A DNA stretch of 63,715 bases, taken from assembly GCA_029882995.1 (NCBI GenBank), contig JAOUJV010000004.1:1-63715 (forward strand), in the 5' to 3' direction. Position numbers and translations under genes: made by a program. Below the pieces are notes generated by a model. It ran no database searches. It was given only the letters and a program-made list of their open reading frames with translations, and was not told the origin of the DNA. Origin of the DNA: Gammaproteobacteria bacterium (GTDB taxonomy: Bacteria > Pseudomonadota > Gammaproteobacteria > DAOVJZ01). Position 1 is the first letter of the stretch, and each line of letters begins with the position of its first letter. This document shows, in pieces, positions 14,881 to 57,514 of the stretch.

Positions 14881-14930
14881 AACAACAAAAAGCCCTTCAA
14901 GGAACAGTGTTCTCTATTCCTTGAAGGGCT
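14881..14930 (-). terminator. rho-independent terminator after paralog C
   Basis: 14-bp stem AGCCCTTCAAGGAA / TTCCTTGAAGGGCT, followed on the minus strand by TTTTGTTGTT. Confidence 0.75.
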
Positions 14931-15001
14931 TTATTTTTTATTAGCTTTTTATTTCAAAATCAGAATGGCTATATTCGATACCTGGCTAACAATAATTATT
15001 T

Positions 15002-15852: not shown

Positions 15853-15890
15853 TATAAAAAACGGGGATACACATTAATGCGCATCCCCGT
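15853..15890 (-). terminator. rho-independent terminator after paralog D
   Basis: Stem ACGGGGAT / ATCCCCGT, followed on the minus strand by TTTTTT. Confidence 0.7.
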
Positions 15891-15951
15891 TCTATCCGTT
15901 TTAGTCTTTTAGTTCCACAAGAATCCTTACTTGTGATTGACTACATATTAC

Positions 15952-16746
15952 TTACGCTTTGCGGCGACGAGCAATACCAGCCAGACCTACTAGACCAGAA
16001 CCGAACAACCATACTGCAGCTGGAACTGGAACAGGTGAAGACATGATGTCAACTTTCAGTACTTCAACATAAGCAGCACCGTTGAAATCACCCCATTCTG
16101 CACCAACATTACCGCCTGAAACGAAAGTAGCAGTGTAGTCATCAAGGCCATCACCATTTACGTCACCAACGTTTGCAACAGCTGTACCGTTGTTAGTTAC
16201 ACCATTAGCAGTTGAAGCACCTGTGGTGAAGGTTCCATAATCCCAAGGATTATCAAACATTGGCATACCGCTGATTGCGCCCAAAAGACCAGTCAGAGTG
16301 AATGATGTTTCACCTGCAGTTGATGTACCAGACATCGCGCTTGTATCGCTTGCATACTTAATGAAAGTACCACCCGCTGTTGAATAAATAGCATCAAACT
16401 GTACGCTTGTGAATGCAATATCACCCATAGCATCAACAGTCATAGCAAGAGAGCCGGCCATACCGTCACCACCAATACCTACATTTATGCCTTGAACAGT
16501 AGTAGGACCAGTATCAGTCATGCGCTGTGAAACACCAGTTGTAGGTGTTGGGTCAAATGTGAAAGTTGAGTTCCAGTTACCATCTGTACCAGCATCAGCA
16601 ATAGTACAAAGACCAAGGTAACAAGGTGTTTCTTGAATTTCCATTGAGTAACTACCTGTAGCGATTTGTACCGCTGAAGCAGATGTTGCAAGCGCAGCAG
16701 CACCGAATGCTGTTGCCAAAGATAAAGCTATTTTAGACTTCTTCAT
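15952..16746 (-). CDS. secreted PEP-CTERM (VPLPA-like variant) sorting-domain protein, paralog D
   Basis: 264 aa; SASAVQIATGSY, GSLAMTVDAMGDIAFTSVQFD, GTAVANVGDVNGDGLDDYTATFVS, SPVPVPAAVWLFGSGLVGLAGIARRRKA. Strong SD GGAGGAG. Confidence 0.85.
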   Translation of the reverse strand: MKKSKIALSLATAFGAAALATSASAVQIATGSYSMEIQETPCYLGLCTIADAGTDGNWNSTFTFDPTPTTGVSQRMTDTGPTTVQGINVGIGGDGMAGSLAMTVDAMGDIAFTSVQFDAIYSTAGGTFIKYASDTSAMSGTSTAGETSFTLTGLLGAISGMPMFDNPWDYGTFTTGASTANGVTNNGTAVANVGDVNGDGLDDYTATFVSGGNVGAEWGDFNGAAYVEVLKVDIMSSPVPVPAAVWLFGSGLVGLAGIARRRKA

Positions 16747-16884
16747 ATATCTTACTCCTCCAAAATTTAACTTCTTTCATTATTTCTTGAATATATTCAA
16801 GAATCATCCAGGTTCATTTAGATACCCTAAACTCCCCCTAACTAAATGATCCACTAATCCTCATGAATTAGTACTTAACCTTTT

Positions 16885-16900
16885 AGCAAGACTCGTGCCA
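16885..16900 (-). promoter_or_regulatory. sigma-54 (-24/-12) promoter for paralog D
   Basis: The minus strand reads TGGCACGAGTCTTGCT, an exact TGGCAC-N5-TTGCW. It lies about 140 nt upstream of ATG 16746. Confidence 0.75.
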
Positions 16901-16972
16901 TCAATGATTTTTTATCATTTTTCATAGGGTTATGATTGAGTATTGGTGAACTCAGTTTAAATTATCTCAAAA

Positions 16973-16990
16973 GTGTAAAATTTATTGACA
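16973..16990 (-). promoter_or_regulatory. candidate enhancer-binding-protein site (TGT-N11-ACA dyad), proximal copy
   Basis: Plus strand GTGTAAAATTTATTGACA (minus strand TGTCAATAAATTTTACAC). It starts 73 nt beyond the -24 element. Three related copies occur in the window. Confidence 0.5.
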
Positions 16991-17156
16991 AAATCAGGTT
17001 GTGAAACAGCACTTATATATTATTTGTCAATAAAAACAATAAGTTATGCAGGCCAGACTCTATAAATATATACGTCTATTGATTAACCTACTCTCTGCCT
17101 CAATGTCACAAAAATCAATTAATTCATTATTAATCAATACGTTACAAAAGGATTGG

Positions 17157-17174
17157 GTGTAAAAATTTCTGACA
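17157..17174 (-). promoter_or_regulatory. candidate enhancer-binding-protein site (TGT-N11-ACA dyad), distal copy
   Basis: GTGTAAAAATTTCTGACA matches the 16973 copy at 15 of 18 positions. Its 5' flank (gttacaaaaggattgg) also resembles the flank of the 23847 copy. Confidence 0.45.
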
Positions 17175-17602
17175 CCTATATAAGTTTTTTATAATAAGCT
17201 TATCGTTATTTAAGCTATCGAGGTTGGTATTTTTCTCCCATATTATTCAGAGATTGTGGGAAACACAGAAAACTTAAAATAAATTTAGAGCATATTGATA
17301 TTGTTCAGACAATATAAAGGTCTTGATTGGATTTCTTAGGGGGTAACGATATTAAACACGCCTTTTGCCATGCTTGCAAAAATCAGGTATCCAGTTACGT
17401 AGACAAATAATACATTGTATATTCATATTGGATTCTGCGATAATGCACGGCACTGCGGAGTTCTATAAAAACAATATTTTGCAATACATAATTTAACAGA
17501 AAAAAATAACTGGCTTTTAAGCTTCCACAGTAAAACAACAAATTTTTAGTCTGGGGTCTGTTCTCAAATCATACTGGGGACATTAAGGGGGAAATAAATA
17601 TC

Positions 17603-19072
17603 ATGAGATCCACTCATCGTTCTTATCTGACAAACATATTATTGTCATTCGTTTTGCTATTTACTGCATCTGTCCATGCATCAAATGGTATGTTTCAAAT
17701 AGGCTTTGGCCATAAATCCAAATCTATGGGTGGCACAGCTGTTGCTCAAGCTCTGGATTCACTCGCTGCTGGTGCTAACCCAGCCGCCATGGTGCATGTT
17801 GGCAATCGTTATGATATCGGTGTCGAACTTTTCGTGCCTAAACGATCGGTTTATATGAAAGATGCGGCACCTGACGCTTTGACCACTGGCCCAAATAATG
17901 ATCCAAGAAATGGAACATGGGATAGCCGTCATAATTTATTTCCAGTCCCTAACATGGGTTTTAATGTGATGTTGAGTGACAGACTGTCATTTGGTGCGTC
18001 AGTCATTGGGGCCGGGATGGGCACAGCATACGGTTACAACTTTTTTGACGTAGGTCCTGCGGAAGGCGATGAGAATAGTACTGTTGGTATAGAGCTATTT
18101 CAAGTGCAAATATTACCCACATTTGCATATAAATATAATGATACCCATTCTTTCGGCATTTCACCGATTTTTGGAATGCAACGATTCTCTGCTCGCGGAC
18201 TGGGTGAGTTTGGAGATTTCTTTTTCTCGGAAACGCCTAGCCAAATGACTGATCGCGGTCAAGACTGGGCGTTTGGTTATGGTATTAAATTAGGCTGGCA
18301 AGGTCGATTTCTTGAAAATGATGCTTTGACTCTTGGAGCCACTGTAAATTCTGAAGTCTACATGGAAAAATTCAGAAAATACCAAGGGCTTATTGCAAAT
18401 GGGGGTGAATTAAATATCCCTGCACATTATGCTATTGGTATTGCTTATAATGTAAATAAAAAATTCATGGCCACAATGGATGTACAAAGGGTTTTATATA
18501 GCACTGTCCCTGCCATTAGCAACCCACACCCTGGTAATAATTGTTGGGGGGGCACTGGTATTGGTGCCACATGTACCTTGGTGGCCCCAACAGGCGAGGA
18601 CAGAATAGGTGGAGAAACAGGTTTAGGTTTTGGCTGGACCGATCAAACCATTTATAAGTTGGGATTTGCCTTCAAGGCAAATAGCAAGTGGACATATCGT
18701 TTCGGACTTAATTATGGAGAATCGCCTATTCCGGACCATCAAATCCTGTTTAATACCATTGCTCCTGCTGTAGTTGAAAAACACGTTACATTAGGCTTTA
18801 CCTATACCCCTGACAAGGATACCGAGATTAACTTTATGTTTATGCATGCTTTAGAAAACCGACAGGAATGCCGGGCTACTGACAGGGATGATATCCCCGC
18901 TGATGTAGTGGCAGGCGGATTGGGCGCTGAGCTTGCTTATCTTCAAGCTAATCCAGGATGTAGAACTTATTTCACGCCTAACTCGTTTACCAATGGAGAA
19001 TCAGGTTCTGTCGCCGCCGAGATGGTTCAATATTCAATGGGTATAAGCTACTCAAAGAAATTTAATTGGTAA
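17603..19072 (+). CDS. outer-membrane beta-barrel protein, FadL/TodX (long-chain fatty acid / hydrophobic compound transport) family
   Basis: 489 aa; signal peptide ...SVHA|SNG. N-terminal hatch-like motif GMFQIGFGHKSKSMGGTAVAQALDSLAAGANPAAM resembles the FadL N-terminus. Alternating beta-strand pattern; aromatic C-terminal residue (KKFNW). Confidence 0.6.
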   Translation: MRSTHRSYLTNILLSFVLLFTASVHASNGMFQIGFGHKSKSMGGTAVAQALDSLAAGANPAAMVHVGNRYDIGVELFVPKRSVYMKDAAPDALTTGPNNDPRNGTWDSRHNLFPVPNMGFNVMLSDRLSFGASVIGAGMGTAYGYNFFDVGPAEGDENSTVGIELFQVQILPTFAYKYNDTHSFGISPIFGMQRFSARGLGEFGDFFFSETPSQMTDRGQDWAFGYGIKLGWQGRFLENDALTLGATVNSEVYMEKFRKYQGLIANGGELNIPAHYAIGIAYNVNKKFMATMDVQRVLYSTVPAISNPHPGNNCWGGTGIGATCTLVAPTGEDRIGGETGLGFGWTDQTIYKLGFAFKANSKWTYRFGLNYGESPIPDHQILFNTIAPAVVEKHVTLGFTYTPDKDTEINFMFMHALENRQECRATDRDDIPADVVAGGLGAELAYLQANPGCRTYFTPNSFTNGESGSVAAEMVQYSMGISYSKKFNW

Positions 19073-19304: not shown

Positions 19305-21950
19305 CTACTGCTGAAGCTCAGACAAAGCCTCTTTAGCATCCTTTATATTGGCAAACTTTCCGATTTCTATCGCTTTTTTCAGGTGTTTCTTTGCTAGTTC
19401 TGATTTTCCCAACTTGAAATAGGACATGCCTAAATGATAGCGAAATATGGCAACATCCGGCATCTTGCCAACGACAGGTGCTAATATTTTAACTGCCTCC
19501 TCATATTTACCCAGTTTATAGTTAACCCATCCAAACGTATCAATAAACATTGGATCTTTTGAAGAACCTAATCTTGAAGCCAACTTGAATGCGCGCTTTA
19601 AATTCTCATCGTCAACCCTGTGTTCAACCAACAATGATGCCAGATTATTTGTTGCCAGCACATTAGATGGCGCAACCTTCAGGATTTGCTCGTAATACCC
19701 TATTGCATTATCAAACTCCTGTTGCCCCTCATGTAGCATGGCCAAACGGTGCAAAAGACGAACATCTTTGGGTAAATGCTTGAGAGCCAGTTTATATGTG
19801 CTTATAGCGCCTTCAATATTGTTCTGTGCAATGCGCACATTTACCAGCTGTATATAGGCATCTGCAGTTTTGGGGGTCAATTTAACCTGCTTATCAAACT
19901 CCATCTCTGCTTTATTCAGTTTGTTTTGATTCTGGTAAAGCACTCCTAATAAACTGTGAGCGGTCGGGTGATTGGGGGACTCTTTAATAATGCCCTCAAG
20001 CTTCGCTTGAGCACCTGATATATCTTTGGCAGCAATATATGCACTTACTAATTGCGCAAGCAAATTTATGTTTTCTGATCGCGTGTAGGCTTCATTAAAA
20101 GCATCTATGGCAGATGTGTAATCCTTTTTTGCCAAAAAAACCATCCCCAAAAATCGATGGGCCATTTTTGTCTCAGGGTTGTTTTCTATTATCTTTCTTA
20201 ATATGGCCTCAGCTTTAGGTGTATCTCCCGTTTTGAGTTGCAGATCTATAAGCTCAGCCAATAAATCTTTAGACTCGGGGTTGCGTTTAAAAGCCTCTTC
20301 AAATTCTGACTTTGCTCTGTTTTGTTTTTTTTGTGCTTTATAAATACGCCCCATTCTAAAATAAGGATCACTACTTTTCGGATCAACTTTTTTTAGCCTA
20401 TTCAAAACCTGTATTGCTTGCGGAATTTTGTTATCCCTTGCCAGCATGCTTGACTTCATCGTCAAAGCATCAATATTATCAGGCTCAATTTTCAAAGCCT
20501 TATCAATATATTTGTATATATTTTCTTTTTCCCTTGTGACAATAAAATAGCGTGCCAGCCGCAATAATGCATCAACATTTTTTGGTGTAAGATCTGCAAC
20601 CTTTATGAGGTTTTCATAAGCCAACTTCATCTCGTCTTCTGCAAGATATGCTTCCGCGATCAAATTTAACACATCAATTCTTTCTGGCTGCGTTTTTAAT
20701 ATTGTGCGAAAAGCTGCAATTGCTTCTGTATTATTTTTATTCTGCAATGCCATTTTACCTTTTAAAGTCAGCGCGTCATGATCGTTGGGGCTTTCATCAA
20801 GAACTTCGGATATAAGGCGGCTAGCTTCTTGGGCTTGAGAACGAGCCATATATATCCTGGCTGCCTCAATGCGCGCCTTGAGTCCGGCAGGACTAAACTT
20901 CCACTTCTCAATAACACCCTCAAAGAGGTCTAGAGCATTATCTTCACGGTTTTCTCTAGCATATACATTTGCCAATACAAATATTAATTTCGGCTCTTCT
21001 GGCAACTTTGAGATTGATAACTTTAATCTTTTAATTCCTTCTTCTCCCCCTTTATGAGTACCAATATAATCAGCCAAAACAAGATGCCTCTCTACATCTA
21101 GCGGTTCTGCTACGACCGCATCCTGCAACACCTTTATCGCCTCATCTTTTTTATCTATTTGAGTATAATGCTTTGATAAAATCACTCGGTAATCAAACAC
21201 ATCCGACTTTATCTCTATTACTTTTTCCAATGTTTTAATTGCGTTATCCATTTGATTATAACGCTGATAAAAATGCACTAACGCCAAACGAATTGAAATG
21301 TTTTCAGGGGATAATAAAACTCCTTTTTTCAATACCTGCTCTTCTTTTTTAACCAGTTTTTGCTGAGCATAAATCTCTGAAAGCAAAATCACGGCGTTTT
21401 CATTACCCCCTTTTGAAAGAACTTCCTCCAGAATTTTAATTGCTTCTTTTGTTTTTTCATTACGAAAATTGAAGGCAGCCTTCAGAACTAGTCCACCAAC
21501 ATAACTTGGATCTCGTTGAAGAATTTCATCCACCTGTTTTTGAACTTCTTTCAGGGTTTCTTTTGCCCTTTCAGCATCTCCGGCTTTTTTTTGCTCATCT
21601 GCAACTAAATAAAAATACCAGCCCAGGCTTTCACGCGTTTTCAGCAACCCTGGATCAAGTTCTAATGCGCTATTGTAACTGCCGAGCGCCTTTCCCCAAT
21701 CCCGCTTATACTCAGCAATCTCACCCAGATAGTGATATGCCTCTGCAGTTTTGGGATCAATTTGTAATACATTTTTGAATTCAATTTGTGCTTTATCATA
21801 GTTTTCTTCGGCAAGGTACTGTTTCCCTTTTCCAAGATACTCCTTAACGGTCTTTTCCGTATTACCACAGGCGGAAACAACCAGCATTATTACTAAAACG
21901 AAGGATGTTCTCATTAATAAAGATTTAACTAAAACCATATTTTTGCCCAC
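19305..21950 (-). CDS. prsT: PEP-CTERM system TPR-repeat lipoprotein (PrsT-like), copy 1
   Basis: 881 aa, TPR repeats throughout, lipoprotein signal with lipobox VVSAC. The size and architecture match the PrsT family as I recall it (about 900 aa). Start uncertain: GTG 21950, ATG 21938 or ATG 21914. Confidence 0.7.
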   Translation of the reverse strand: MGKNMVLVKSLLMRTSFVLVIMLVVSACGNTEKTVKEYLGKGKQYLAEENYDKAQIEFKNVLQIDPKTAEAYHYLGEIAEYKRDWGKALGSYNSALELDPGLLKTRESLGWYFYLVADEQKKAGDAERAKETLKEVQKQVDEILQRDPSYVGGLVLKAAFNFRNEKTKEAIKILEEVLSKGGNENAVILLSEIYAQQKLVKKEEQVLKKGVLLSPENISIRLALVHFYQRYNQMDNAIKTLEKVIEIKSDVFDYRVILSKHYTQIDKKDEAIKVLQDAVVAEPLDVERHLVLADYIGTHKGGEEGIKRLKLSISKLPEEPKLIFVLANVYARENREDNALDLFEGVIEKWKFSPAGLKARIEAARIYMARSQAQEASRLISEVLDESPNDHDALTLKGKMALQNKNNTEAIAAFRTILKTQPERIDVLNLIAEAYLAEDEMKLAYENLIKVADLTPKNVDALLRLARYFIVTREKENIYKYIDKALKIEPDNIDALTMKSSMLARDNKIPQAIQVLNRLKKVDPKSSDPYFRMGRIYKAQKKQNRAKSEFEEAFKRNPESKDLLAELIDLQLKTGDTPKAEAILRKIIENNPETKMAHRFLGMVFLAKKDYTSAIDAFNEAYTRSENINLLAQLVSAYIAAKDISGAQAKLEGIIKESPNHPTAHSLLGVLYQNQNKLNKAEMEFDKQVKLTPKTADAYIQLVNVRIAQNNIEGAISTYKLALKHLPKDVRLLHRLAMLHEGQQEFDNAIGYYEQILKVAPSNVLATNNLASLLVEHRVDDENLKRAFKLASRLGSSKDPMFIDTFGWVNYKLGKYEEAVKILAPVVGKMPDVAIFRYHLGMSYFKLGKSELAKKHLKKAIEIGKFANIKDAKEALSELQQ

Positions 21951-22304: not shown

Positions 22305-23570
22305 TTAGGCGGCTTTTCTTCTACCAGCCCACACAAGGCCTATCAAGCCCGAACCAAATAACCATACAGCTGCAGGCACAGGAACTGGAACTGGAGCAAG
22401 GCTAGTATACTGAACTTCATGCTCAGAAAAGTCTTCAGCTGTGAAGGTAACTATACGCTCACCATCCGCACGCATCATGAATCCTTTTCCACCGAAGCTG
22501 TTAACCTTCCAGACTGCACCTGGGGTGCCTTCTGGAACGACAGTTGCCAACCATTTCTTGGTTATGGGGTCACGAACCGGGTTACCAAATTCATCATAGG
22601 AATCGGCAGATAACCATACACCCAGAGGGATAACGTCTGCGCCTAAAAACGACACCCTATTATTATATGCATGATCCAATGCCGGGTTATCATTAACAAT
22701 GACTTCACCATTTTCATCCAGTGGATTGGCTAAAGGGTTTGTGTTATTGATAGTAGCATGACCTTCAAAGGTGTCTCTTGTTAATCCATTCAGCTCAGTT
22801 TCCATGTAGTAACTTCCATAACTTCGCATAATAAGACCAGGAACAATCTGAGAGACGGGTTCAGCTGTACTTGCATCCCCATCGACATAATAAACATCAA
22901 AAACAACATCGAATGTTATTTGCCCTGCCATGATTGCTGTACCACTCGCATCATCAGCTAAAACTGAGCCACACCAGCCTTTACCATCAGAAATACCGTA
23001 AGGGCTGAAATTAATCGAAGTGTCGTAGACACCATCTTGCGGAAAAACTGAGGGAGGAAGCCCTGCATTAGCTCCATCACCATCATAAGAAAACATATCA
23101 ACGAAGCCGAAATCCATACCAGACATGGGTACATGGTAATTACCGGCTTTATCAATCTGCATATTGTAAAAATGGCTCTCTGGCATGTCATACCCCCAAT
23201 CACCAAACTTGATGATGCCATCCTGAGAGGCATTTCTATACAAATCAGGGGAGCCAAACTCGACCGATAAGTCGGTTCGTAGATCCTTGGTTAATCCATC
23301 TGCCGGCAACGTATGTACATTTTGCTCTTGCCCAATTCGGGTTGCATCAAATCCAGTGATACCAGTCACTGTGGAAGTCACTGCAAAATCATTAGCTCCA
23401 ACCCCGTTTGGGCCTTTGTAACCCCAATCGTTAAATCTCAGGAAACTATTATTGACCGTTCCATAAGTCGCTTCATCATAATATTTATAATGATCTGTAG
23501 GTGTCGCAGCAAAAGCTGGCTGAGATATGGCACCTAGTAGTGCTACGGTAATTATTTTTCGATGATTCAT
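22305..23570 (-). CDS. secreted PEP-CTERM (VPLPA-like variant) sorting-domain protein, unrelated to paralogs A-D
   Basis: Start at ATG 23570 (MNHRKIITVALLGAISQPAFA|ATP, SD GGGGAG). C-terminus APVPVPVPAAVWLFGSGLIGLVWAGRRKAA. No domain recognised in the ~380-aa mature part. Confidence 0.8.
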   Translation of the reverse strand: MNHRKIITVALLGAISQPAFAATPTDHYKYYDEATYGTVNNSFLRFNDWGYKGPNGVGANDFAVTSTVTGITGFDATRIGQEQNVHTLPADGLTKDLRTDLSVEFGSPDLYRNASQDGIIKFGDWGYDMPESHFYNMQIDKAGNYHVPMSGMDFGFVDMFSYDGDGANAGLPPSVFPQDGVYDTSINFSPYGISDGKGWCGSVLADDASGTAIMAGQITFDVVFDVYYVDGDASTAEPVSQIVPGLIMRSYGSYYMETELNGLTRDTFEGHATINNTNPLANPLDENGEVIVNDNPALDHAYNNRVSFLGADVIPLGVWLSADSYDEFGNPVRDPITKKWLATVVPEGTPGAVWKVNSFGGKGFMMRADGERIVTFTAEDFSEHEVQYTSLAPVPVPVPAAVWLFGSGLIGLVWAGRRKAA

Positions 23571-23679
23571 TACTACTCCCCTCAAATCCTCAAAATTAAA
23601 CAACTAGTTTGCAGATAATTATTTTTGTCTGCATGCTTAACAAGTAATAGTATTTCCCCATATATTCTCTAAAGATATA

Positions 23680-23695
23680 AGCAATATTTATACCA
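23680..23695 (-). promoter_or_regulatory. sigma-54 (-24/-12) promoter for the 421-aa PEP-CTERM gene
   Basis: The minus strand reads TGGTATAAATATTGCT. GG and GC are at the exact consensus spacing (TGGYAY-N5-TTGCT), about 110 nt upstream of ATG 23570. Confidence 0.6.
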
Positions 23696-23767
23696 AATAA
23701 TATTAATCCATAAAAAACAATATGTTACACCAAAAGAGATTTATTATAATCATTTGTTTTTAATCAA

Positions 23768-23785
23768 TTGTAAAAAATATTGACG
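23768..23785 (-). promoter_or_regulatory. candidate enhancer-binding-protein site, proximal degenerate copy
   Basis: TTGTAAAAAATATTGACG matches the 16973 copy at 14 of 18 positions. It starts 73 nt beyond the -24 element, the same offset as at paralog D. Confidence 0.45.
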
Positions 23786-23846
23786 CCTCATACAAAACAA
23801 AAATCATACTTTCCTTTAAGTATCAATGAGTTAACAAATAATGGGG

Positions 23847-23864
23847 GTGTAAAATTTACTGACA
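23847..23864 (-). promoter_or_regulatory. candidate enhancer-binding-protein site (TGT-N11-ACA dyad), distal copy
   Basis: GTGTAAAATTTACTGACA matches the 16973 copy at 17 of 18 positions. Confidence 0.5.
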
Positions 23865-23952: not shown

Positions 23953-26325
23953 TTATTTCAAATCATTATAAGCTTTAATCGCTTCATCTTTCTCACTATA
24001 TTTCTGCTCAGACTCTACCGCCAACTTCAGATGTTTTTTAGCCAAGTCTTTCTCGCCCATTTTTTTATATATAGCACCGATATGATATTGGAATATCGGA
24101 ATATCCGGAGACTTCTCGATAACTTTTTTCATATATGAAAGCGCATCATCATTATTCCCCGCTTTATAATAAACCCAGGCCAATGTATCCAGATAAACTG
24201 CTTCTTTGCTGTCTTTTAATTTTGTTGCCAAAGACAAAGCTTCATTAATATCAGTATCAGACAATAGAACTGCAAGGTTATTAACAATAGTTAACATATC
24301 TGGATTTGACTCGAGTATTTCTCTATAGGTTTGTATAGCATTTTTTGTTTTTCCATTTTTCTCATATAACGTAGCAAGCTGGAATTTTAATGTTTTCTTA
24401 TTGGTTACTTTTTCTATCCCATTTGCCAGTGCCTTTTCAGCCATATCTGACTGTCCTGTTAACACATATATTTGTGACAAGCGGGAATGCAAAATCTCTA
24501 TATCATCAGATATAGACAATGCCTTATTAATCGTTTTCTTTGCTGCATCATAATTTTTTTCCACTATATATACTTGCGACAATAATTCTAAAGGCACAGG
24601 GTTATCTGGAAACTGACTAATTACTTTATTAATCCTGGCAACTGCTTTCCCTGGCTCTTTGTTTGATACATAGATTCTTACTATTTGCTTAAGGAAAGTT
24701 AGTTTGTCTTTTGTTTTATCGTAGCCCAGTTCAAACTCAGCGATAGCTTTTTCATATTTCTTCTGCCCTAAATAAAGCCCAGCAAGCTGTTCATACCCGG
24801 TAGGTTTTTCCGGGTAATACTCCTTGATTTTTTCCAATAAGGACTCCACCTCTCCAAACTCCTGTTTTGACGCCAGAATCCTGGCCTTGAGCAACAACGC
24901 ATCAAGCTCCTTTGAATCAAGTTCAAGCGCTATATCTATTTCTTTTAAACCTTTCTCAACATCCTTTTCAGACAAATAGCTTTGTGCCAACAACACATGT
25001 GCCTTGGCATTTTTGGGGTTCAAGTCAACCGCTCTTTGAATGGTTTCCTTTACGAGTTGAAAATCTTTATTTATTGCATGCGCCTGCGCCAATAACACAT
25101 ACACATCAATTGCTCCAGGCTGTTCTTTTAAATAAGTCCTTAATGAATTGACAGCTGTCACAGCATCATTTTTGCTTAACGCGATTTTTCCTTTCGTTAA
25201 GTGTGCGCCGAGATCCTGCGGACTCTCTGATAATATTTCGCCAATATATTTTTCTGCCTTATCAATATCCCCTTTGCCCATATGAATGACTGCAAGCAAA
25301 TTCATTGCAGCAAGACCATCTGGTGAATACTTATCCCCTTCCAAGATGGATGAATAAGTATTGATCGCCTTATCATTTTGCCCGACTTTCTCATAAAGCC
25401 TGCCTAAAACAAGCCTCAACTTATCTCTGTATTTATGTGTTTCAATTGAGCCAATAAGAAACTCTTCCGCCTCCTTTACACTCTTTTTTGTGGCTAGAAA
25501 TTCTGCATAAGCATAGTATCTTTCTGTTTCATCAGGTTCTGCATCAATAGCATCACGTAATATCCTTACCGCCTTATCCAAACTATTCGTGCTGGCATAA
25601 AATTTTGCCACATTAACAATGTATTGATATTCTCCTTCCTTGATATTCATAATCTCAAGGAGAGTTTTTTCAGCATCATCCAATTCATTTCTGGAAATGT
25701 ATATTTTTGCCAACAATCCATGCAATTTAATATTTTTAGGATTGGCTTTTGCAGCTGATTTTAAAACATTTATAGCCTCGCCACTATTTTCAAGCCTTAA
25801 ATATATGCTGGCAAGCATTGCTGCTGCCTCATCAAACTCGGGCTGTTCATTAATAATATCTCTGAGTAAGTTTTCTGCTTCTTTATCCTTTTTTTGCCTG
25901 CTGAATATAGTAGCCTCAAGAAACCTTACTTTATAATGCTCCCTGTTTTTCTCTTTTATCTGTGCCAATATTTCTTTTGCTTTATCCTCTTTCTGCTGCA
26001 GAAGATAAAAACCACCTAATTTAACTGAAGCATCAATGTTTTCAGGATCAAGTTCAACTGCTTTGGAATAATTGCCAAATGCCTTACTCCAATTCTGCCC
26101 CCTTTCTTCAATGACCCCTACGAGATAATATGCCTTTGAGAATTTAGGATCTATTTGAAGAACATTTTTCAACTCGATTTTTGCCTTTTCATAATTCTCC
26201 TCCTCCATGTACTGCTCAGCTTTCTCATAATACTTTTGTTTTCGCTCTTCCTTTCCGCCACATGATGCAAGCATTGCAATCAATACAATTAATAAAAAAC
26301 GACCCATAATATTTTGTACACACAT
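23953..26325 (-). CDS. prsT: PEP-CTERM system TPR-repeat lipoprotein (PrsT-like), copy 2
   Basis: 790 aa, TPR repeats, lipobox MLASC. The N- and C-terminal segments are clearly paralogous to copy 1 (KNVLQIDPK..., ...LAKKHLK...). SD AGGAGA 7 nt upstream of ATG 26325. Confidence 0.7.
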   Translation of the reverse strand: MCVQNIMGRFLLIVLIAMLASCGGKEERKQKYYEKAEQYMEEENYEKAKIELKNVLQIDPKFSKAYYLVGVIEERGQNWSKAFGNYSKAVELDPENIDASVKLGGFYLLQQKEDKAKEILAQIKEKNREHYKVRFLEATIFSRQKKDKEAENLLRDIINEQPEFDEAAAMLASIYLRLENSGEAINVLKSAAKANPKNIKLHGLLAKIYISRNELDDAEKTLLEIMNIKEGEYQYIVNVAKFYASTNSLDKAVRILRDAIDAEPDETERYYAYAEFLATKKSVKEAEEFLIGSIETHKYRDKLRLVLGRLYEKVGQNDKAINTYSSILEGDKYSPDGLAAMNLLAVIHMGKGDIDKAEKYIGEILSESPQDLGAHLTKGKIALSKNDAVTAVNSLRTYLKEQPGAIDVYVLLAQAHAINKDFQLVKETIQRAVDLNPKNAKAHVLLAQSYLSEKDVEKGLKEIDIALELDSKELDALLLKARILASKQEFGEVESLLEKIKEYYPEKPTGYEQLAGLYLGQKKYEKAIAEFELGYDKTKDKLTFLKQIVRIYVSNKEPGKAVARINKVISQFPDNPVPLELLSQVYIVEKNYDAAKKTINKALSISDDIEILHSRLSQIYVLTGQSDMAEKALANGIEKVTNKKTLKFQLATLYEKNGKTKNAIQTYREILESNPDMLTIVNNLAVLLSDTDINEALSLATKLKDSKEAVYLDTLAWVYYKAGNNDDALSYMKKVIEKSPDIPIFQYHIGAIYKKMGEKDLAKKHLKLAVESEQKYSEKDEAIKAYNDLK

Positions 26326-55042: not shown

Positions 55043-55768
55043 TTGAATATTGCCCTGCTCGAAGATGACATACATGTTGGAGAGCTGATACAGCTTTGGC
55101 TCAAGGAAGCAGGCCATGACTGCACACACTATACCGAAGGTGAAAAATTCATCAGTGAAGCCCATGATCAAGCCTTTGATATGGTCATTCTCGACTGGAT
55201 GTTGCCTGATATAAACGGCGATAAGGTCCTTGAGTGGATAAGAAGTAACATCAAATGGAGTATTCCTGTCCTGTTTGTCACCATGCGTGATAGCGAAAGA
55301 GACATCGTCTATGCACTGGAACACGGTGCGGATGATTATATGACAAAGCCGGTCAAGCAAATGGAAATGCTGGCACGCATTAATGCCTTATCCAGAAGAT
55401 CAGACCTGCATCCGGTCGGACACAATAAAATCGAGATCGGTAGCTATTCCATCGATATAACATCAAGAAATGTGACGCATAATGACAAACCAGTTCAGTT
55501 GACCCAGAAAGAATTTGAGCTGATTGCTTTCCTGTTTAAAAACATCAACACTGTGATGTCCAGAAAATATATATTGGAAAGTGTATGGGGTCGGTCAGGT
55601 GAGCTTAATACCCGAACCGTTGATACTCACATTAGCCGTATTCGTAACAAGCTTGAATTGGGGAAAGAAAAGGACTGGCGCCTAAGCGCAATTTATCACC
55701 ATGGATACAGACTTGAGTTTCTTGGTGAAGAATTAAAACAGGTTGAGAAAAATCCTTCGCTTCTATGA
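55043..55768 (+). CDS. OmpR/PhoB-family response regulator (receiver + winged-helix)
   Basis: 241 aa; LEDD acidic pocket, MVILDWMLPD phospho-acceptor, YMTKP. C-terminal winged helix (LTQKEFELIAFL...RTVDTHISRIRNKL). TTG start. Confidence 0.85.
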   Translation: MNIALLEDDIHVGELIQLWLKEAGHDCTHYTEGEKFISEAHDQAFDMVILDWMLPDINGDKVLEWIRSNIKWSIPVLFVTMRDSERDIVYALEHGADDYMTKPVKQMEMLARINALSRRSDLHPVGHNKIEIGSYSIDITSRNVTHNDKPVQLTQKEFELIAFLFKNINTVMSRKYILESVWGRSGELNTRTVDTHISRIRNKLELGKEKDWRLSAIYHHGYRLEFLGEELKQVEKNPSLL

Positions 55769-57514
55769 TTCCCAGAAGTAAACTGCCTTTATCCCATTAC
55801 CTGATTCATTATATTTAAGTTCTGAGCAAAGTGATTTTACCAGAGCAATACCACGCCCGGAAAAAACATTGCTTTTCTTCTGTTCCTGATAAGAACCAAA
55901 ATCAAAACCTTTTCCGCTATCAAGATATTCAATAGAGAGTTTTCCGCCACCATCGACTGGCTCATGCGTAAGATTAATCCTTATAAAGCCATTATCCAGT
56001 GTTTCAAGTCGTTTTTGTCTGGTTTCATAGTATTCTGCAAAGCCTTCGGGACTTGTCTTTAATGTGCTGTCCATACCAAGCACACCATGCTCCAGTGCAT
56101 TGGAATATAATTCAGCAAGTATTGTGTATAACCGCCCTCGATGACTATACAACCCCTGTACCTCAAGAAGCACATGTAAAATTGCAGGCAATGGATCCAT
56201 GTCTTTCAGAATTTCTGGTCCTAGTTCAAATGAAACACTCCATTTGCAGGGCTCCTTGACATCACTGTTCTTCTTATATGACGATTTATTACTGACCAGA
56301 TTATTATCAAATGATACTTCTATAAGCGTTGTGTCATCATCCTGCTTTTTATTGCCTCGGAAATTATTTAGGCTATTGCTTATATCCTCAAACATAACAG
56401 CAGGATCAGTATTGTTAGCGAAACAAAGATCCAGCCTGTCTTCACCAAACATCACACCATTCTCATCAGTAGCTTCAATCAGGCCATCTGAATACAAATA
56501 AATCCTGTCTCCAGGTTCCGCATCCATAATCTGAATATCATTTTTAAATGAATTGCTGGAAACAACACCGAACGGAAGATGTATCGATTTAAATATCTTT
56601 TTGATTTCTTTTTTTGCTGAATAGGCGATCGCTTCAGGCACACCGCCATTCCATACGGAAATTTTATTGTTTTCGATATCCACATCAACAATACATGCAG
56701 CACAGAACAAACCTGTTGGTAAGGTTTTGTGAAGTTTAGCATTGATCTCGGTTGCTATATCCTGAATTGAATATCCCTTTTCAGTCATGCTATAGAATAT
56801 TTCAGCAACAGGCATGGCACCAATAGCTGCAGACAATCCATGCCCGGTAAAATCCCCCAGCATGATATGCTGTCCGCCCTTTGGTTTTGGTGATACCAGC
56901 AATATATCACCGTTAAATAGCGCCACGGGTGAAAGAAGATATTTGATATTGCTGACATTCAGGGTGTCAGACCTGATTATCCTCTTGAAAATACGCTCCG
57001 CAATTTCATGCTCGCGTTCTATATATTGTTGGTGATAAACCAGCTCGGCATGCTGTTCCTGCAATGTTGTATATATTTTTTTTACACGAAGTAATGCATC
57101 AATTTTTGATCTGAGGATTGTCCTGCTAAATGGTTTGGTAAGAAAATCATCACCGCCACTTTCAATACATTTAGCAAGCGCCTTCTCATCTGTCATTGCG
57201 GTTAGAAAAAAGATTGGTACAAACCGATCACCGACCAATGACTTGATGGATCGGGTCGCTTCATAGCCATCCATGACCGGCATCATGACGTCCATCAAAA
57301 TCAAATCAGGATTTTCCTTGTTAAATACCTCGATAGCTTGCTTGCCGTTTTCTGCCATCAAGACTGTGAATCCGTCCTTTTTCAGCATGGCATTCAAAAC
57401 CATACGATTCGTGACTTCATCATCAACGATGAGTATTTTCAGTCGTGCAATATCTACACTGACATCATCTAATACTTCATCACTTTCAGGTATGTTATTT
57501 TTTTCCGGCAACAT
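55763..57514 (-). CDS. three-domain response regulator: receiver + PP2C (SpoIIE/RsbU) phosphatase + RsbW-like HATPase kinase domain (HsbR/CrsR-like)
   Basis: 583 aa; REC (ILIVDDE...LILMDVMMPVMDG...FLTKPF), PP2C (GDFTGHGLSAAIGA...LYSDGLIEA...DDTTLIEV), HATPase (LYSNALEHG...DSGKGFDF...GRGIALV). Confidence 0.85.
   Translation of the reverse strand: MLPEKNNIPESDEVLDDVSVDIARLKILIVDDEVTNRMVLNAMLKKDGFTVLMAENGKQAIEVFNKENPDLILMDVMMPVMDGYEATRSIKSLVGDRFVPIFFLTAMTDEKALAKCIESGGDDFLTKPFSRTILRSKIDALLRVKKIYTTLQEQHAELVYHQQYIEREHEIAERIFKRIIRSDTLNVSNIKYLLSPVALFNGDILLVSPKPKGGQHIMLGDFTGHGLSAAIGAMPVAEIFYSMTEKGYSIQDIATEINAKLHKTLPTGLFCAACIVDVDIENNKISVWNGGVPEAIAYSAKKEIKKIFKSIHLPFGVVSSNSFKNDIQIMDAEPGDRIYLYSDGLIEATDENGVMFGEDRLDLCFANNTDPAVMFEDISNSLNNFRGNKKQDDDTTLIEVSFDNNLVSNKSSYKKNSDVKEPCKWSVSFELGPEILKDMDPLPAILHVLLEVQGLYSHRGRLYTILAELYSNALEHGVLGMDSTLKTSPEGFAEYYETRQKRLETLDNGFIRINLTHEPVDGGGKLSIEYLDSGKGFDFGSYQEQKKSNVFSGRGIALVKSLCSELKYNESGNGIKAVYFWES

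Follow-up and report, generated by a model that had tools for sequence, protein, structure and literature searches.

A candidate sigma-54-dependent promoter of the PEP-CTERM-box type upstream of a VPLPA-CTERM protein gene in a gammaproteobacterial contig

The gene for paralog D, a secreted VPLPA-CTERM (XrtD-sorted) protein, is preceded on the minus strand by a sigma-54 -24/-12 element and, further upstream, by two copies of a conserved 17-nt motif. The best-supported reading, with a probability of roughly 0.8, is that these elements would form an enhancer-dependent sigma-54 promoter of the PEP-CTERM-box type, which drives a monocistronic gene for a VPLPA-CTERM matrix protein. A sigma-54 promoter with sites for a PrsK/PrsR-type activator had already been suggested in the initial annotation of this DNA, and the suggestion has gained from closer analysis: the elements behave as footprints in an alignment of orthologous loci, and their order and spacing match the published box (PMC1569441). 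From this likeness we infer that the activator is probably PrsR itself. The stretch analysed, referred to as the window, is one whole contig of 63.7 kb.

According to Haft et al. 2006 (BMC Biol 4:29, PMC1569441), proteobacterial PEP-CTERM genes mostly form single-gene operons with long upstream regions. Motif 1 of the box is 17 nt long, ends in TTTACA, is at times repeated, and is separated from motif 2 by a mean of 62.8 nt (range 32-92). Motif 2, also of 17 nt, carries the GG and GC of the sigma-54 -24 and -12 positions and has its place 23-221 nt ahead of the start codon. In phylogenetic profile, this DNA site matches PrsR (TIGR02915, an NtrC-type activator), PrsK (TIGR02916) and PrsT (TIGR02917); PrsR was proposed to bind motif 1, and the PrsKR pair is defined for XrtA-type systems (PMC1569441). 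In NCBIfam, TIGR02915 bears the name "PEP-CTERM-box response regulator" (PMC9850573).

The paralog D transcription unit contains the following features, given in the direction of transcription:

17158..17174, minus strand: distal motif 1, candidate upstream activator site, TGTCAGAAATTTTTACA, centred at about -292 relative to the predicted transcription start
17132..17144, minus strand: putative IHF-like site TAACGTATTGATT, 13 nt 3' of the distal motif 1 and matching WATCAANNNNTTR in reverse complement
16974..16990, minus strand: proximal motif 1, candidate upstream activator site, TGTCAATAAATTTTACA, centred at about -108
16885..16900, minus strand: sigma-54 -24/-12 promoter element TGGCACGAGTCTTGCT, with GG at 16899-16898 and GC at 16887-16886
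16747..16874, minus strand: predicted 5' untranslated region of about 128 nt, from promoter geometry
15952..16746, minus strand: paralog D, 264-aa VPLPA-CTERM (XrtD-sorted) secreted protein, TIGR03370 at 28.8 bits against a cut-off of 25.35
15853..15893, minus strand: intrinsic terminator 3' of paralog D, with a 16-bp stem, a UAAU loop and a T-run

The -24/-12 element at 16900-16885 reads on the minus strand as first annotated. It matches 11 of 11 consensus positions in the correct orientation, its GG and GC are exactly 10 nt apart, and 138 nt separate it from the ATG within an intergenic region of 856 bp. Exact TGGCAC-N5-TTGC occurs twice in the 63.7-kb window, as compared to 0.13 expected occurrences. 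The two upstream repeats are likewise present at 16990 and 17174 on the minus strand, where they had been described as 18-mers (TGTCAATAAATTTTACAC at 16990-16973 and TGTCAGAAATTTTTACAC at 17174-17157). The conserved unit is 17 nt, TGTCAGwAAwTTTTACA, and not 18, because the 18th base carries zero information in a matrix of 28 sites. The proposed offset of 73 nt holds whether it is taken as 16973 minus 16900 or as the number of nucleotides between the 17-mer and the T of TGG. TGTCA-N6-TTTACA is found exactly three times in the window (16990, 17174 and 23864), against about 0.07 expected by our own estimate from base composition; all three copies are intergenic, co-oriented and located 5' of VPLPA-CTERM genes. 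The next-best matches to the 18-mer in the 63.7 kb have at least four mismatches. The repeat had also been described as a dyad, which is true of its outer TGT...ACA triplets and of one inner A/T pair, but not of the half-sites as a whole, since TGTCAG and TGTAAA are unlike.

With the C of the -12 GC at 16886, transcription is predicted to start near 16874, which gives a leader of 128 nt. A single metatranscriptome contig of 157 nt spans 16645-16801 and thereby the leader and the 5' end of paralog D; it fits a start upstream of 16801, as weak evidence, being the sole RNA contig over 11 kb of the region, from one metatranscriptome run only and with DNA carry-over possible. The predicted leader also contains a perfect 20-nt palindrome, TTCTTGAATATATTCAAGAA (16784-16803, minus strand), about 38 nt 5' of the ATG; the 81% and 54% orthologues of paralog D have the very same palindrome, and the 70% one lacks it. 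An RNA hairpin and a protein operator are both conceivable readings. The idea of a conserved RNA structure in the leader was rejected, as there is zero covariation and the z-score is only -1.56.

At the other end of the gene, the hairpin at 15893-15853, which had been missed by a consensus terminator scan, folds with -24.8 kcal/mol (z-score -5.66), and paralog D is therefore monocistronic. Strong intrinsic terminators follow both paralog D (15853-15893) and paralog C (14889-14932) on the minus strand; thus, the four tandem paralogs do not constitute one operon. Box-type promoters were also sought upstream of paralogs C, B and A, and neither element was found there.

A parallel arrangement at 23680-23785, noted in the initial annotation, precedes the gene for a 421-aa VPLPA-CTERM protein and was confirmed, including the 73-nt spacer between 23785 and 23695:

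23848..23864, minus strand: second promoter, distal motif 1, TGTCAGTAAATTTTACA
23821..23833, minus strand: putative IHF-like site TAACTCATTGATA, 14 nt 3' of the distal motif 1
23769..23785, minus strand: proximal, weaker motif 1, CGTCAATATTTTTTACA, 73 nt 5' of the -24 element
23680..23695, minus strand: second sigma-54 element TGGTATAAATATTGCT, 109 nt 5' of the ATG at 23570

The proximal copy at 23785 is a fourth TGTCA-N6-TTTACA with one mismatch. At the orthologous site of this promoter in locus L004, TGTCAGTATTCTTTACA is followed after 73 nt by TGGTATAGATATTGCT. The open reading frame downstream, 22305-23603, is listed with a TTG start that gives 432 aa, while the ATG at 23570, with GAGGGGAG before it, gives 421 aa and a normal signal peptide; the ATG is the likelier start of this gene.

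Homologues of paralog D were retrieved from metagenomes together with their contigs, and three of these proved to be syntenic orthologous loci, encoding proteins 81, 70 and 54% identical to paralog D with a divergent FadL-like gene in each. The four intergenic regions (the window and the three orthologous loci) were aligned over 921 columns and inspected with an unbiased sliding window at a threshold of at least 10 invariant columns in 15. This yielded five peaks of invariance, at the start of the FadL-like gene, at a block around 17423, at the distal motif, at the proximal motif and at the -24/-12 element; from 17200 down to the ATG, no four-way peak lies outside the -24/-12 element and the two copies of motif 1. 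Of the columns inside the annotated elements, 67% are invariant, compared with 18% in the surrounding DNA (Fisher p = 1e-20). Across the four loci, 14 of 17 columns are invariant in the distal motif 1 and 15 of 17 in the proximal one, and 13 of 16 are invariant in the -24/-12 element, which reads TGGCA(C/T)G(A/G)GT(A/C)TTGCT in the three orthologues. The 73-nt proximal spacer is kept in L002, in L004 and in the second promoter. Judged by this alignment, the motif-1 copies and the -24/-12 element are phylogenetic footprints.

Next to the distal motif, the degenerate IHF consensus YAA-N4-TTGATW (the reverse complement of WATCAANNNNTTR) is matched exactly at 17144-17132 and again at 23833-23821. 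An IHF-like site at 13-14 nt from the distal copy is present at both window promoters, in L002 and in L004, and with one mismatch in the 54% locus, L005; at 17132..17144, 9 of 13 columns are invariant. Its position suggests that a bend at the IHF-like site may bring the distal site closer to both the proximal one and the promoter.

The intergenic region has further elements on the side of the FadL-like gene. No sigma-54 promoter toward this gene was found on the plus strand in 17175-17602. A second perfect TGGCAC-N5-TTGCT at 17731-17746 (plus strand) lies inside the FadL-like coding sequence, 128 nt past the start codon and without a motif 1 upstream in that orientation, and is most likely due to chance or driven by the coding sequence. 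The four-way conserved block at 17404-17423, AATATACAATGTATTATTTG in the minus-strand reading with the palindrome TACAATGTA inside, is located some 180-200 nt 5' of the divergent FadL/TodX-like gene and is probably this gene's own regulatory site, unrelated to the box. In L005 (7493-7374, minus strand), and also in L006, a relaxed motif-1 match, TGTCGCCTTCTATTACG, stands 87 nt ahead of TGGGATAATCTCTGCA, the pair being aimed at the FadL-like gene; this match has no counterpart in the window and may be due to chance.

The arrangement extends beyond the orthologous loci. Four more distant homologues (48-37% identity; L008, L010, L011 and L012) have GG-N10-GC at a distance of 84-112 nt from their start codons, preceded by motif variants of the form (T/C)GTC(A/G)-N6-(T/C)T(T/A)AC(A/G). 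A relaxed motif-1 scan of the window and 12 related loci (191 kb) gave 32 matches, 28 of which precede a GG-N10-GC element and face a VPLPA- or PEP-CTERM gene. Proximal spacers measure 73 nt in five promoters and 74, 75 or 86 nt in others, with values of 74-86 in the more distant ones. L008 also contains an unrelated classical PEP-CTERM gene (197 aa, TIGR02595), upstream of which TGTCAGTATTTTTTACA is followed after 75 nt by TGGCCTGAAATTTGCT. A profile search of genome contigs with the paralog alignment returned one match only, in an unrelated Verrucomicrobiales locus.

When JGI metagenome contigs were scanned with TGTCARNAANTTTTACA, 123 matches were obtained, most of which are chance matches, because the pattern has 15 fixed bases and the database is very large. 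A sigma-54-like element is located 30-100 nt downstream of 15 of the 123, compared with 3 in a mirrored control window, and is missing from about 88%. Nine matches precede PEP-CTERM-type ORFs (eight with a PEP-type tail and one with VPVPAA), and seven of these nine have the sigma-54-like element (odds ratio 46, p = 3e-6). The identical 17-mer is thus found 5' of classical PEP-CTERM genes in unrelated metagenome contigs, with spacers of 61-64, 73 and 95 nt. Spacer lengths from 13 independent promoters cluster at a period of 10.5-11 bp (R = 0.81-0.86); this phasing of about 11 bp is suggestive of an activator bound on one face of the helix, in a small sample for which the period itself was scanned.

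Besides paralog D, the window encodes three tandem paralogs, the 421-aa VPLPA-CTERM protein and a large EPS locus with several XrtA-system markers. The exosortase is XrtD-EpsI (TIGR04152, 590 bits), and two PrsT lipoproteins, encoded at 19305-21950 and 23953-26325, exceed the TIGR02917 cut-off of 312.2 with 434 and 336 bits. The absence of an enhancer-binding protein from the window, stated in the initial annotation, is borne out by a six-frame search, which gave zero GAFTGA or related signatures, and by domain searches, which gave zero NtrC-family matches; PrsR, PrsK and rpoN are likewise absent from the genes of the 63.7-kb window, and the GAFTGA signature of sigma-54 activators has zero occurrences across all fetched loci. 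The regulators that the window does contain are an OmpR-type response regulator and a REC-PP2C-HATPase protein. Both lie at 55043-57514 (the latter with a REC-PP2C(SpoIIE)-HATPase_c_2 domain order), between EPS chain-length genes and a che-like cluster with MCP, CheB, CheD and CheR, and this region may represent a chemosensory-type pathway that controls matrix production.

Some of these observations would also suit matches that arose by chance or from a non-regulatory repeat of a generic, dispersed kind: AT content is high in the region, one perfect sigma-54 match (17731) is located inside a coding sequence, and about 88% of the bare 17-mer matches in metagenomes are not associated with a sigma-54-like element. 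Such an origin is effectively refuted by the footprinting and carries a negligible probability, because the elements have held their orthologous positions in loci with as little as 54% protein identity, although their flanks have diverged, and because all three exact copies of the window share location, orientation and type of downstream gene. The 17-mers might instead be operators for a sigma-54-independent regulator, such as a LysR-type protein or a repressor, that merely lie near the promoter. The motif formally holds the LysR T-N11-A signature, but many independent promoters keep it at a fixed, helically phased distance from the -24 element, it co-occurs with GG-N10-GC across unrelated contigs, and a position between -100 and -300 is typical of enhancer sites rather than operators, all of which makes an operator function very improbable.

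The remaining alternative concerns the identity of the activator, in that the sigma-54 promoter and its activator sites could be served by an NtrC-family protein other than PrsR, recruited by the XrtD-type system. The exosortase of the window is an XrtD, whereas PrsKR is defined for XrtA-type systems; PrsR is absent from the window and all fetched loci; and XrtD loci of Rhodobacterales use neither the box nor a true PrsT. The presence of XrtD here, together with the lack of the box from the Rhodobacterales XrtD loci, thus leaves some room for a different activator. It is nevertheless unlikely: classical PEP-CTERM genes are preceded by the same 17-mer, letter for letter, and by sigma-54 elements 61-95 nt 3' of it; the 17-mer fits motif 1 of Haft et al. 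(PMC1569441); and the window encodes several EPS markers of XrtA systems and two proteins above the equivalog cut-off for PrsT. The preferred reading therefore remains a PEP-CTERM-box promoter, with PrsR as the probable activator.

For such a PrsR-activated promoter, the following sequence of events can be proposed. RNA polymerase with sigma-54 would bind TGGCAC-N5-TTGCT at 16900-16885 and form a closed complex. An NtrC-family activator, most likely PrsR phosphorylated by PrsK in response to a presumed signal, would then occupy the two 17-mers near -108 and -292. The DNA between the 17-mer sites would loop, probably with the help of IHF bound to the conserved site next to the distal motif, allowing the activator to touch sigma-54, spend ATP and open the promoter. 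Transcription would proceed from near 16874 through the 128-nt leader and the gene and stop at the hairpin at 15893-15853. The 421-aa VPLPA-CTERM gene (ATG at 23570) would be under the same control module.

The independent phylogenetic footprinting confirms the PEP-CTERM box of 2006 as a real and strongly constrained enhancer-promoter module, and the box is now extended to an XrtD/VPLPA-CTERM system. The consensus TGTCAGwAAwTTTTACA, the spacing rules (about 63, 73, 85 and 95 nt) and the candidate IHF site are useful for annotating exosortase regulons in metagenomes and for designing PrsR binding experiments. There is an even chance that this sediment gammaproteobacterial lineage has joined a PrsK/PrsR-sigma-54 box regulon to XrtD/VPLPA-CTERM, with a fixed bipartite enhancer in which the two sites are about 182 bp apart, the IHF-like site follows the distal one at 13 nt and the proximal one is phased at 73 nt. 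If true, the lineage would be a natural case for studying the assembly of PrsR on DNA and the exchange of regulatory modules among exosortase subtypes. The paralog D promoter as such opens no new biological question.

Among known systems, the upstream activator sequence of NifA is TGT-N10-ACA, and the initial annotation had read the repeat as a NifA-like dyad. The two share the outer TGT/ACA triplets, a sigma-54 promoter 80-150 bp or more downstream and IHF-assisted looping, which for paralog D is a prediction. The motif examined here differs in its asymmetric, strongly conserved inner sequence (TGTCAG...TTTTACA) and in the function of the genes, which are not nitrogen-fixation genes. Its triplets are spaced by N11 in 28 of 28 sites examined, so that the likeness to NifA sites is a resemblance and not membership. 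The NifA-like reading is replaced by the published motif 1, since the N11 spacing falls outside the NifA definition.

A second comparison involves XrtD plasmid loci of Rhodobacterales (about 123 kb), from Roseobacter denitrificans pTB2, Jannaschia sp. CCS1 p1 and Thioclava sp. FTW29 (L013, L137 and L138). Their XrtD proteins are 34-37% identical to that of the window, and they share VPLPA-CTERM substrates and EPS genes including a TPR protein. The latter is only 22-27% identical to the PrsT of the window, and the records do not name it PrsT. Scanning of the approximately 123 kb revealed zero copies of motif 1 and zero sigma-54 elements 5' of VPLPA-CTERM genes, and a tblastn search for PrsR or a true PrsT on plasmids, performed via XrtD and PrsT, returned only Rhodobacterales XrtD loci without PrsR. 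The Rhodobacterales VPLPA-CTERM loci must be regulated differently. As XrtD occurs here together with PrsT and the PEP-CTERM box, which is absent from the Rhodobacterales XrtD loci, the gammaproteobacterial lineage thus combines XrtD sorting with the regulatory layer of XrtA systems.

The closest promoter with experimental proof is that of pepA in Aquincola tertiaricarbonis RN12, a PEP-CTERM gene beside prsT that depends on RpoN1 and whose start was mapped by primer extension (BMC Microbiol 2023, PMC9850573). It likewise has a TGGCAC...CTGCTT -24/-12 element and a predicted enhancer sequence upstream, but belongs to a betaproteobacterium and a classical PEP-CTERM system, whereas the window promoter is a predicted one.

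In comparison with the published description of the PEP-CTERM box (PMC1569441), the window has the 17-nt motif ending in TTTACA, here duplicated, a 73-nt spacer within the range of 32-92, a motif 2 with -24 GG and -12 GC, and distances of 138 and 109 nt from motif 2 to the ATG, both inside 23-221. The box likewise stands before monocistronic PEP-CTERM-type genes, in large intergenic regions and never within coding sequence, in a locus that encodes PrsT. It differs in the presence of VPLPA-CTERM substrates and XrtD instead of XrtA, in a spacer one helical turn above the published mean of 62.8 nt, and in the pairing of the distal copy with a conserved IHF-like site. What is new is modest and confined to the XrtD/VPLPA-CTERM combination, the IHF-like site and the phased spacing. 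Every feature of the published box that could be tested was found here, and the paralog D promoter is therefore an instance of the published regulatory module, a member of the known PEP-CTERM-box class and not a new entity.
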